DNA of 7,878 bases from a virus (lineage: Monodnaviria; Loebvirae; Hofneiviricota; Faserviricetes; Tubulavirales; Inoviridae). A program made the translations under genes and the position numbers. Location: IMG/VR virus record IMGVR_UViG_2654587726_000001. The stretch is one strand, 5' to 3'. This document shows positions 1-7,878 of the stretch, in pieces (within the stretch, counting starts at the first letter, position 1; every line of letters begins with the position of its first letter). The notes under the pieces were generated by a model. The model was given only the letters and a program-made list of their open reading frames with translations, was not told the DNA's origin and did no database searches.

Positions 1-123
1 GTCGGAGATACCAAGCCGCTGCGCTGCCATCTGTGTTGTCAGACGCCGGTCGATGACGTCCTGAATAATCTTGAGTCGGTTAACTTCATCCAAAGTGAAA
101 AACTCCGCTGCGAGAGCCGTCAT
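1..123 (-). CDS. Partial CDS, N-terminal 41 aa only (gene continues beyond window start); HTH-type protein, possibly the N-terminus of an IS transposase
   Basis: Reverse complement of 1-123 reads MTALAAEFFTLDEVNRLKIIQDVIDRRLTTQMAAQRLGISD with ATG at 123-121 and an AAGGA Shine-Dalgarno about 5 nt upstream on the minus strand. The LT..MAAQRLGIS pattern resembles HTH N-termini of some IS transposases (ISNCY/IS1202-like) from memory; not verified. Confidence 0.4.
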   Translation of the reverse strand, partial: MTALAAEFFTLDEVNRLKIIQDVIDRRLTTQMAAQRLGISD

Positions 124-203
124 GGTAATCCTTACTTGATTATACACGCCGGACATCTTAACTTAGCCCAAGGCGGACATTACAACTTTGCTGTTACAAT
201 ATT

Positions 204-236
204 GGTGCACATAATGTGACACGCGTTATGTTGAAA
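204..236. other. dif-like Xer recombination site with atypical 11-bp spacer; putative prophage attachment junction
   Basis: GGTGCACATAA (204-214) matches the XerC arm of E. coli dif GGTGCGCATAA at 10/11; TTATGTTGAAA (226-236) matches the XerD arm TTATGTTAAAT at 9/11; the spacer TGTGACACGCG is 11 bp instead of 6. Sits at the boundary between the flank and phage-like DNA. Confidence 0.4.
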
Positions 237-273
237 AGGCCGCTGCGATACTTTCCACCGCAGCGGCCTTTTT
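234..273. terminator. Strong stem-loop (14-bp perfect stem, 11-nt loop) flanked by A-run and T-run; candidate bidirectional terminator or structured att/origin element
   Basis: AAAAGGCCGCTGCG (234-247), loop ATACTTTCCAC, CGCAGCGGCCTTTT (259-272), followed by T. Perfect inverted repeat read directly from the sequence; overlaps the right arm of the dif-like site. Confidence 0.45.
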
Positions 274-306
274 ATACATAACGCCATTGTGCGCACTGTT
301 GTGTAT

Positions 307-420
307 TCAGTCGTTGCTTCTGTTGATTTTATTGTGTGCCCTCAGGACGATTGGCAACACTATTGTTATGACGCTGAACAAAAACATGCCGAACAGACTA
401 CCGGCAATCAGGTATTTCAT
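307..420 (-). CDS. Hypothetical small hydrophobic peptide (37 aa; possible 46-aa form from ATG at 447)
   Basis: Minus-strand ORF MKYLIAGSLFGMFLFSVITIVLPIVLRAHNKINRSND: one predicted transmembrane helix followed by a basic tail. No convincing Shine-Dalgarno; below the ORF-track size cutoff; a competing short plus-strand ORF exists at 368-463. Weak support. Confidence 0.2.
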   Translation of the reverse strand: MKYLIAGSLFGMFLFSVITIVLPIVLRAHNKINRSND

Positions 421-498
421 TAGTAAATCCAGAATCATGTCGTGCATGGTTTTTCTGAGCTGATGTTGTTAATCCTGTCGGGACTCTACATTCCTTTA

Positions 499-732
<234 letters not shown>

Positions 733-788
733 TTAAACCGTATCCTTTCGATCCTTCGCGGGTAGTCTGCTGAATGCAGGAAAAGGGA

Positions 789-1001
789 TCACATTGCCTT
801 TTTTTTCTTAAGTTCTTCTTTGCTTATTAGATCTTTCACCGCATCATCTAAGTAGTTGTCTATTAAGTGGTTTACTATCTCTGATGGTTTTAGTAGCTCA
901 CCTGTTTTATTACCGATTTCCAGCACTCTTCGTTTTAGCTCCAGTTTTCTGTTTTCGTTAATCCTTACGGTTGTGTCTCCGCGCTTTGTTTCTTTTTTCA
1001 T
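789..1001 (-). CDS. Small DNA-binding protein, ribbon-helix-helix-like; putative phage transcriptional regulator/repressor
   Basis: 70 aa from ATG at 1001-999 (the track's TTG start at 1004 is one codon upstream) with GAGGT Shine-Dalgarno 8 nt upstream. Sequence MKKETKRGDTTVRINENRKLELKRRVLEIG... has a beta-strand then basic helix pattern typical of RHH (Arc/CopG-like) proteins. Divergent from the rep operon, as for repressors of integrated filamentous phages. Confidence 0.5.
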   Translation of the reverse strand: MKKETKRGDTTVRINENRKLELKRRVLEIGNKTGELLKPSEIVNHLIDNYLDDAVKDLISKEELKKKKAM

Positions 1002-2877
<1,876 letters not shown>

Positions 2878-2881
2878 TTTT

Positions 2882-3055
2882 ATGTCTGTTAATTCGGATT
2901 CAGTTTCCACGCAAATTAATGCTATTTGCGTGGGGATACCTGATGTGTCGGGGATTTATTCCTCGGCGTTTTTAACGGGATTTTCACTGCCAGTATTTTG
3001 TTTTTTTCTTGGCATGATTATTTCCACAATTTGGAGTTTAATAAGGAGACTTTAA
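2882..3055 (+). CDS. Small hydrophobic protein (57 aa), possible minor coat protein (pVII/pIX-like)
   Basis: ORF MSVNSDSVSTQINAICVGIPDVSGIYSSAFLTGFSLPVFCFFLGMIISTIWSLIRRL with hydrophobic C-terminal half; lies between the ssb-like and major coat genes where Ff phages carry gVII/gIX. Below ORF-track cutoff; weak Shine-Dalgarno. Confidence 0.35.
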   Translation: MSVNSDSVSTQINAICVGIPDVSGIYSSAFLTGFSLPVFCFFLGMIISTIWSLIRRL

Positions 3056-3057
3056 TT

Positions 3058-3306
3058 ATGTTTGCAAAAATGACCAATTTTTTTAAGGGTGTTGATAAGA
3101 AAGTTGCAGCTTTATCTTTTTCCGCTGCTTCTGCTCTTGCTGTATCTCCGTCTTTTGCTGGTACAGTCGATTTTTCATCATTGACTAACAGCATTGATAT
3201 GTCTTCTGTTTCTGCTGTTATTCTTTCTATCGGTGTTGCAGGAGTTACAGTTTATCTGACTTTTGCTGGCGTTCGTAAAGTATGGGGAGCCATCAGAAGT
3301 ATCTGA
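3058..3306 (+). CDS. Major coat protein (pVIII-like) precursor
   Basis: ATG 3058 preceded by AGGAGA at 3044-3049. 82 aa: 34-aa signal peptide ending SFA, then a 48-aa mature peptide GTVDFSSL...GVRKVWGAIRSI with acidic N-terminus, hydrophobic core and basic C-terminus. The track start at 2998 is a TTG extension, judged less likely. Confidence 0.8.
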   Translation: MFAKMTNFFKGVDKKVAALSFSAASALAVSPSFAGTVDFSSLTNSIDMSSVSAVILSIGVAGVTVYLTFAGVRKVWGAIRSI

Positions 3307-3322
3307 GTTGTTTTTTATGAGG

Positions 3323-3348
3323 AAGGGCGGATATTCCGCCCTTTTTTT
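3323..3348 (+). terminator. Rho-independent terminator after major coat gene
   Basis: AAGGGCGG (3323-3330), loop ATATT, CCGCCCTT (3336-3343), followed by a 7-T run to 3348. Same placement as the terminator after gVIII in Ff phages. Confidence 0.8.
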
Positions 3349-3440
3349 GGATATTTATGTTTGATTTTATTTTTATGATGTTTGGTTCCCTTTGTGGGTT
3401 ATGTTGCGTCATTGGCTTTAAATCTAATTTGTGAGGTTTT

Positions 3441-3611
3441 ATGTCTACTCAAGAATTTAAAGTTAAATTGCCAGAATACACTATCGAGCAGATAGAAAGA
3501 ATTATTTACAATAAAAATACAACCATTGAAGAATATGTTGTTTCAGTTATTCTTGAAAAAGCCGATCAGGATTTCCGTCGAATTGTAAAACCATTTAGTT
3601 TTTACTGGTGA
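3441..3611 (+). CDS. Hypothetical small hydrophilic protein (56 aa), not part of the canonical inovirus gene set
   Basis: [59 protein letters not shown]; GAGG 4-8 nt upstream; stop at 3609-3611 sits 4 nt before the pIII ATG. Below ORF-track cutoff. Charged, no hydrophobic segment. Confidence 0.35.
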
Positions 3612-3615
3612 TGAA

Positions 3616-5247
<1,632 letters not shown>

Positions 5248-5261
5248 TAATCAGGTGGTGA

Positions 5262-5552
<291 letters not shown>

Positions 5553-5563
5553 GAGGGTGATTT

Positions 5564-7878
<2,315 letters not shown>

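Follow-up and report, generated by a model that had tools for sequence, protein, structure and literature searches.

A probable CTX-type attL at the left end of a filamentous prophage integrated at dif in Escherichia coli

Background

CTX-type phages are defined by an attachment region made of two inverted sites, of which attP1 has an over-long central region (12 bp in CTX itself) and attP2 a central region of 5-7 bp (PMC4246890). In CTX, neither attP1 nor attP2 is competent for recombination as a duplex, because the arms are out of register (PMC4246890), and the attP(+) takes the form of a forked hairpin (Val et al. 2005 and Das et al. 2010, as summarised in PMC4246890). YpfΦ and CUS-1Φ are listed as CTX-type phages (PMC4246890; PMC4266046; PMC3442271), the pair of sites of YpfΦ being termed only "potential" (PMC4266046). 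The VGJΦ type is defined by a single double-stranded site of ~29 bp and by reversible excision (PMC4246890). Finally, the UPΦ phages of Enterobacterales are inoviruses of ~7.6-8 kb that lie in tandem at dif in E. coli and its relatives, with only the first ~15 bases of dif repeated between the copies; the paper that describes them is without the words "attP" or "hairpin" (PMC7307601).

The DNA studied here is an inovirus sequence of 7,878 nucleotides (IMG/VR record IMGVR_UViG_2654587726_000001), called "the window" below in its whole length. A preliminary description, made from the letters alone, had proposed that a dif-like site near its beginning is a phage-derived att site (and not the functional chromosomal dif), that it marks the left boundary of a prophage, and that this prophage belongs to the Xer-exploiting elements (IMEX). 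We think it quite probable that positions 204-297 are the attL of a filamentous prophage integrated at dif by the route of the CTX phage, in view of the anatomy of the region, its junctions in related genomes, an empty site, its fold, its conservation and covariation, and a layout identical to that of CTX.

Results

[quoted passage not shown] The stem arms are 100% complementary, and the first three stem bases are the last three of the XerD-like arm. A match of the quality of attP1 is expected 4e-4 times per window and is reached in 2 of 3000 shuffles. We add here an inverted second site at 297-271, absent from the preliminary description, in which the XerC-like arm scores 9/11 against E. coli dif and the XerD-like arm 8/11, with a 5-bp spacer between them; the chance of such a site at its position is ~5e-4. 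With this second site, the feature has therefore to be seen as a 94-nt unit of two inverted sites around a hairpin. The hairpin is the tip of a two-site attP of the CTX type, and no bystander to the dif-like site. An independent repeat finder returned an outer inverted repeat at 223-237/270-284.

Table 1. Coordinates of the features in the window (fractions are matches to the arms of E. coli dif)
Feature	Position	Strand	Remarks
End of IS1202-family (annotated ISNCY) insertion sequence	1..198	-	transposase N-terminus 123..1; IS end ...GCTGTTACA at 191-198
5 bp ATATT, native sequence left of dif	199..203	.	native flanks end ...TTTATATT or ...TTTATGTT
XerC-binding arm of hybrid attL	204-214	+	GGTGCACATAA; 10/11 (XerC arm); G to A at position 6
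Phage central region (attP1 spacer), 11 nt	215-225	+	TGTGACACGCG; same at left and inter-copy junctions
XerD-like arm of attP1	226-236	+	TTATGTTGAAA; 9/11 (XerD arm)
Apical hairpin	234-272	+	perfect 14-bp stem 234-247/259-272; 11-nt loop 248-258
Extended -10-like motif TGC-GATACT	244-252	+	5' stem-loop junction of apical hairpin
Inverted second site attP2	297-271	-	AGTGCGCACAA 297-287, TGGCG 286-282, TTATGTATAAA 281-271
Complete attP(+)-type module, here in attL form	204-297	+	94 nt; one forked hairpin when folded (predicted)
RstR-like repressor ORF	789..1004	-	phrog_2503; 68% identity over 56 aa to RstR-like protein of a CTX prophage
Rolling-circle replication initiator, Rep_trans/RstA-like	1306..2532	+	RefSeq relatives start at 1336
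Remaining phage genes, coding strand	2542..7878	+	filamentous-phage set
gIII-like ORF	3616-5247	+	
DUF2523/gVI	5265-5552	+	
Zot/gI	5564-6622	+	
Secretin/gIV	6619-7878	+	ends at last base of the window

The canonical chromosomal dif, unique at the terminus, has a central region of 6 bp between its 11-bp arms, whereas the spacer at 204-236 has 11 bp. TGT opens both the phage spacer and the central region of dif (TGTATA), beside the predicted position of XerC cleavage; it was fixed in our search patterns, so that its invariance across the modules described below is no independent evidence. Another dif-like match of the window, at 5240 (8/11 and 7/11), was rejected as being at chance level, shuffled windows giving ~2.4 such matches each. 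A search against Rfam gave best scores of 23.5 and 20.5 bits, far under the gathering thresholds of 60 and 93.

The homology with E. coli chromosomes sets in at ~195-205 of the window, and that with the prophage copies in E. coli exactly at the XerC-like arm, which agrees with the left boundary first proposed. Among 5426 complete E. coli genomes, ~15 contain 80% or more of the phage, nearly all of them with tandem arrays; in these related genomes the prophage comes directly after hipBA (the dif neighbourhood) and is usually in tandem, with a unit of ~7.95 kb. In strain JNE21-003 (O166:H15), the chromosomal flank at the left passes into GGTGCGCATAA and then into TGTGACACGCG; between copies, the phage end passes into AGTGCGCATAA (the phage arm) and again into TGTGACACGCG; and at the right end, the phage end is followed by AGTGCGCATAA TGTATA TTATGTTAAAT, that is, by a regenerated dif. 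This three-part pattern is repeated in other carriers, and both junctions were seen in L001/L003, L004, L006 and L056. The window stops ~260 nt short of the right end of the phage; the right end of its own copy is outside the window, and the right junction is known from the relatives. In E. coli A25 the exact left flank of the window is followed by a canonical empty dif, GGTGCGCATAATGTATATTATGTTAAAT, and the empty-site relative (L009) has the arm GGTGCGCATAA, with G at position 6, in an identical flank.

We conclude that the XerC arm of the window is host-derived, because of the junction pattern in the relatives and of the empty site with the same left flank. The idea of a phage-derived att site thus holds for the spacer and the XerD-like arm, but not for the XerC arm, which the junction comparison assigns to the host. 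These comparisons support the reading of 204-236 as a hybrid attL that would mark the left boundary of a Xer-exploiting (IMEX) filamentous phage: the junctions in relatives and the empty site in A25 argue for the lifestyle, and the canonical dif at the right end of the prophage in relatives, together with the empty site, argues for an att site and against the functional chromosomal dif. The preliminary description had counted a canonical dif elsewhere against its own proposal; such a dif was found at the right prophage end in relatives, where the CTX-type mechanism predicts one, and this condition therefore needs rewording.

Several observations concern the sequences around the arm. The arm GGTGCACATAA of the window is also found at the left junction in Y. 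pestis (L016, 3062-3072), and the idea that its change from G to A at position 6 is a private mutation is rejected, the same variant being present there. It follows that the published dif of strain CO92 (GGTGCGCATAA...) would be a site regenerated at the right end, with the phage arm. The inter-copy flank of L005 (8981-9005) is one base off the hipA-side flank of E. coli in L001 and identical to that of L004, and the Ypf inter-copy flank (L012, 3779-3803) is identical at ~19/25 positions to the left flank in Y. pestis (L016, 3037-3061). This likeness of the flanks upstream of the phage XerC arm suggests that the phages may once have captured a chromosomal dif region. Finally, the viral contig IMGVR_UViG_2651869724_000001 (L037) is 99.7% identical to window positions 1-6622, including the IS flank and the G-to-A change in the arm, and is likely to come from the same strain or a sister strain.

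The flank at 1..198 is on the host side and outside the phage. The same IS sequence is annotated as an ISNCY transposase on E. coli chromosomes and plasmids, and gives a weak match to HTH_23. The IS end stands exactly 5 bp from the XerC arm, as published for the "dif-site hunter" IS (PMC10132070). On E. coli plasmids, this IS likewise adjoins a dif-like site (in L010, ...gctgttaca atgtt TGTGCGCACAA TCTATC TTATGTTAAAT), and in L056 ISKpn21 is separated by 5 bp from the plasmid Xer site.

As single-stranded DNA, the junction in its phage form is predicted to fold into one forked hairpin (-42.9 kcal/mol, z = -10.6). The copy of the window has the same predicted fold at -33.4 kcal/mol (z = -7.8), the G-to-A change in its host arm weakening the outer helix; attL activity is not expected in the CTX-type mechanism, and by this analogy the weaker fold would be no objection. 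In the predicted pairing, the two XerC arms pair with each other, TG (215-216) and GCG (223-225) pair with the 5-nt spacer of the partner site, and the paired XerD arms run on into the 14-bp stem, whereas TGACAC (217-222) forms a 6-nt bulge within the spacer in both predicted folds. From the gene orientation and the parallel with CTX, we infer that the + strand is the packaged strand.

Using a pattern that fixed parts of the arms only and left the hairpin stem free, matches were obtained in Y. pestis NCTC5923 (two), in Phytobacter, Scandinavium and Rosenbergiella genomes, and in 38 viral contigs. Over 32 distinct modules the stem is essentially invariant and the loop and the bulge vary; the XerD-like arm TTATGTTGAAA is invariant too, being partly fixed by the pattern. 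In the named fold 95.7% of the cells are paired in these modules. Five pairs are changed on both sides, against none in 500 shuffles and none in slid controls, a modest covariation in which most arm positions are fixed by the patterns, so that their invariance is no independent evidence. Relaxed patterns, with an imposed lower bound of 8 nt for the attP1 spacer, gave 37 further contigs. In the resulting 63 modules, the sequences between the XerD arms form 17 clusters at less than 70% identity, with a stem in every cluster; the arms are complementary at 8-11 of 11 positions, and the spacers measure 9-13 nt in attP1 (under the bound just given) and 5-7 nt in attP2. One of the contigs (L013, JARKOR010000214.1) is binned as a "Candidatus Nanosynbacter" MAG and carries a Ypf-type enterobacterial att module; it is probably a mis-binned contig.

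The module is not tied to one phage backbone. About 95 nt long, it is present on E. coli inoviruses with other replication proteins, namely a replication endonuclease in L004 and proteins of the II/X family in L005 and L006, and in L007 it accompanies a Rep_trans protein like that of the window phage, in a tandem array on a 273-kb plasmid. The target of the plasmid array is the plasmid Xer site AGTACGCATAA-TGTACG-TTATGTTAAAT, and the junctions follow the same logic as those of the chromosomal copies. In L056 (NZ_CP173491.1), which carries a tandem pair of CTX-type inovirus genomes, the left junction (12687-12780) consists of the plasmid arm AGTACGCATAA and the 10-bp spacer of the phage, and the right junction (29753-29780) of the phage arm GGTGCGCATAA, TGTACG and TTATGTTAAAT. 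These junctions indicate that CTX-type inoviruses can use plasmid dif-like sites. The ~95-nt module may be a portable cassette, swapped among inoviruses with at least three families of replication proteins and also found at plasmid Xer sites.

The phage itself is a new E. coli inovirus with an attachment system that is already known (CTX-type). A megablast search of the whole window against the phage collection gave no match, and the phage is therefore no deposited phage record; the best listed matches to its gI in this collection are inoviruses from gut metagenomes, at 35-40% identity. We rejected its identity with UPΦ901, since the primer of that phage is absent from the window at up to 3 mismatches and the best listed gI matches are these gut-metagenome inoviruses and no named coliphages. 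Identity of the whole phage with YpfΦ or CUS-1Φ was rejected as well, the att module being all that is common to both sides. No toxin genes were seen in the window.

Some features of these genes may be recorded here. The RstR-like match corresponds to positions 6336-6596 of GU942563 (a Vibrio cholerae CTX prophage) and is surprisingly close for a pair of phages from E. coli and Vibrio whose Rep and RstA share only 33% identity. An unannotated ORF of 46 aa at 307-447 (-), hydrophobic and membrane-like, adjoins attP2, and a counterpart with 50% identity occupies the same place in L004, a prophage of unrelated backbone. At 4501-5000, inside the gIII-like ORF, there is a local GC peak (0.55 versus ~0.43) with a positive AT skew, which is possibly a glycine-rich linker. 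The length of the gIII-like ORF varies from 1632 to 1686 nt among otherwise near-identical prophages (RefSeq annotations).

The loop of the hairpin carries a motif of its own. In the window it is GATACT (247-252), preceded by TGC, on the + strand and at the start of the loop, at the 5' stem-loop junction; other modules have TATAAT, TAAAAT, TAGAAT, TACAAT, TATACT or GAAAAT at the same place, and TACCAT can be read by eye at this junction in the first CTX hairpin. Across 17 unrelated hairpin clusters (L011-L093) the motif is TGnTAnAAT, on the coding strand only. Among 19 representatives of modules found by fixed arm patterns, 16 have A at position 2 and T at position 6 (mean 3.0 and maximum 9 in 10,000 trials of loop shuffles), and the mean match to TATAAT is 4.1, versus 1.7 for the reverse complement and 2.6 for shuffled loops. 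With the upstream bases, the consensus is (T/C)-G-(C/G)-T-A-a-A-A-T, at 10-14 nt after the XerD arm. In the literature searched we found no description of a -10-like motif in the loop.

Three simple identifications of this motif or of its hairpin were tried. An ordinary sigma-70 promoter in double-stranded DNA was rejected: there is no -35 element at 16-18 bp, and a TTGAAA within the XerD arm stands at a distance of only 10-11 bp. A nick site for Rep in the loop hexamer is unlikely: the CTX ori(+) lies between rstR and rstA, outside the att region, and the module is common to three Rep families. For the mapping of this ori(+), a primer positioned with respect to rstR was used (PMC4439123). The packaging-signal consensus of Xanthomonas phages has no convincing match to the hairpin by eye, and that signal adjoins ori(+), not attP.

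Discussion

The likeness of the locus to CTXΦ covers the site itself, its junctions and the neighbouring genes. In the CTX prophage record GU942563, the left junction consists of the host arm and, on the coding strand, a 12-bp spacer; the phage arm AGTGCGTATTA stands between the copies, AGTGCGTATTA TGTATG TTATGTTAAAT (dif1) stands at the right end, and an inverted attP2 with a 7-bp spacer lies ~150 nt away; this region is predicted to fold into a hairpin of the same kind, with a 5-nt bulge at the same place. Both phages thus have two inverted XerC/XerD sites, the long-spacer one on the coding strand and its short-spacer partner inverted, with a bulge in the central region right after the XerC arm and a TGT in common with dif. 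Their junctions agree as well, with a host arm on the left side, a phage arm wherever two copies meet and a regenerated dif on the right side; both occur in tandem arrays, and the window phage has a Rep 33% identical to RstA and an RstR-like ORF. They differ in the spacers (11 and 5 nt here versus 12 and 7 in CTX) and in the module, which has 94 nt and one 14-bp hairpin here versus ~152 nt with a branched interior of ~90 nt in CTX; moreover, unlike CTXΦ, the window phage lives in E. coli, has as target a dif with TGTATA and encodes its own secretin.

YpfΦ of Y. pestis and CUS-1Φ of E. coli O18:K1:H7 have a homologous attP module, with identical arms and an identical hairpin stem, and a Ypf-type module is present at two junctions in Y. 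pestis NCTC5923. In contrast, tblastn against the Y. pestis loci detected no similarity in Rep, repressor or gIII, and gI, gIV and gVI have 37-45% identity; the spacer is TGTGACACGCG here versus TGTACGACTCG in YpfΦ, and the loop differs too. With the VGJΦ type the locus would have in common the exchange by XerC only at dif, its completion by replication, and the hybrid sites left behind, but it differs by its two inverted sites and its 11-nt spacer. As for the UPΦ phages, which are marked by structural genes like those of IKe and I2-2, the comparison covered gI against the phage collection and the early-genome primer of UPΦ901 (used for the integration check), which is absent from the window phage.

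By analogy with CTX, integration could be pictured as follows. Two inverted XerC/XerD sites with a GC-rich hairpin between them would let the packaged (+) strand fold as one forked hairpin of 94-97 nt, whose stem would mimic a dif duplex: a XerC-arm duplex, five paired central positions with a 6-nt bulge, and a XerD-arm duplex. XerC would cut the attP1 strand after its arm, just before the TGT of the spacer, and the strand would be exchanged with the top strand of dif, where the central region likewise begins with TGT. Host replication would then turn the resulting junction into a prophage. At the left, this would leave the host XerC arm followed by the phage spacer, XerD-like arm, hairpin and attP2; at the right, the phage XerC arm followed by the host TGTATA and XerD arm, that is, a working dif able to accept further copies. 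The double-stranded prophage would not be excisable by Xer, and new phage would come from rolling-circle replication across the tandem copies. Xer binding and cleavage, the single-stranded substrate, the resolution by replication and the irreversibility are all inferred from CTX, with the tandem arrays of nearly all carriers as indirect support for the last three. Under this mechanism, the source prophage should have, past the secretin, ~260 nt, then AGTGCGCATAA, then either TGTGACACGCG (another copy) or TGTATATTATGTTAAAT (a regenerated dif).

It could be argued that the hairpin serves mainly gene expression, as a bidirectional intrinsic terminator or a promoter-bearing palindrome, and that its role in attachment is secondary. 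The GC-rich 14-bp stem is indeed flanked by an A-run and a T-run, and the loop has a conserved extended -10-like motif on the + strand. Nevertheless, modules of the Ypf type have a broken T-run (CTCTTTA), both runs are accounted for by the inverted XerD arms, whose ends they form, and no -35 element is present at 16-18 bp; we regard this explanation as improbable. A terminator and promoter scan made no call at the hairpin, where a stem and a TTTTTAT run are present, since it accepts terminator loops of up to 8 nt and the loop here has 11 nt. A putative role of the hairpin as terminator or promoter is compatible with its being part of an attachment site, and is no exclusive alternative to it.

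Another explanation would be that the double-stranded replicative form recombines through attP1 alone, as in VGJ-type phages, the hairpin being a terminator and the inverted site a relic. The junction sequences themselves would be identical after a XerC-only exchange on double-stranded attP1, and a stem followed by TTTTTAT, placed between convergent transcription units, does resemble a terminator. Yet the 11-bp spacer sets the arms out of register for a duplex XerCD synapse, the inverted partner is retained in 63 of 63 modules with complementary arms and compensatory changes, and VGJ-type elements have a single, excisable site of ~29 bp (PMC4246890). We consider this explanation improbable as well. 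Finally, the notion that the site is the host's own functional dif in a long-spacer variant, based on good matches to both arms, is refuted: the sequence from the spacer onward is phage sequence, repeated at inter-copy junctions, and a canonical 6-bp dif is present both at the right end of the prophage and at the empty site that shares the flank of the window.

Returning to the CTX-type attachment site, the position of the loop motif deserves a comment. A stem that is duplex to about -12, and single-stranded from A-11 on, is how sigma-70 reads an opened promoter. We put forward tentatively, as a rather doubtful idea, that the hairpin apex is more than a spacer and that the folded attachment site is itself a target of host RNA polymerase. 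Recognition of this sort would couple integration with complementary-strand priming or transcription, or set them in competition. In the double-stranded form, the motif could be a -35-independent promoter antisense to the repressor operon. A description of the balance between integration and conversion to the replicative form in CTX-type phages was not found in the literature searched.

Conclusions

An attL of this kind defines where the prophage of this E. coli inovirus begins on its left side and how it was integrated, and a CTX-type attL explains the "dif with a wrong spacer" that annotation pipelines report beside such prophages. The putative single-strand attachment module of the CTX type is widespread and modular in Enterobacterales, where it is associated with different replication genes and also with a plasmid Xer site. 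The loop motif, if functional, would give a handle on the balance between integration and conversion to the replicative form.
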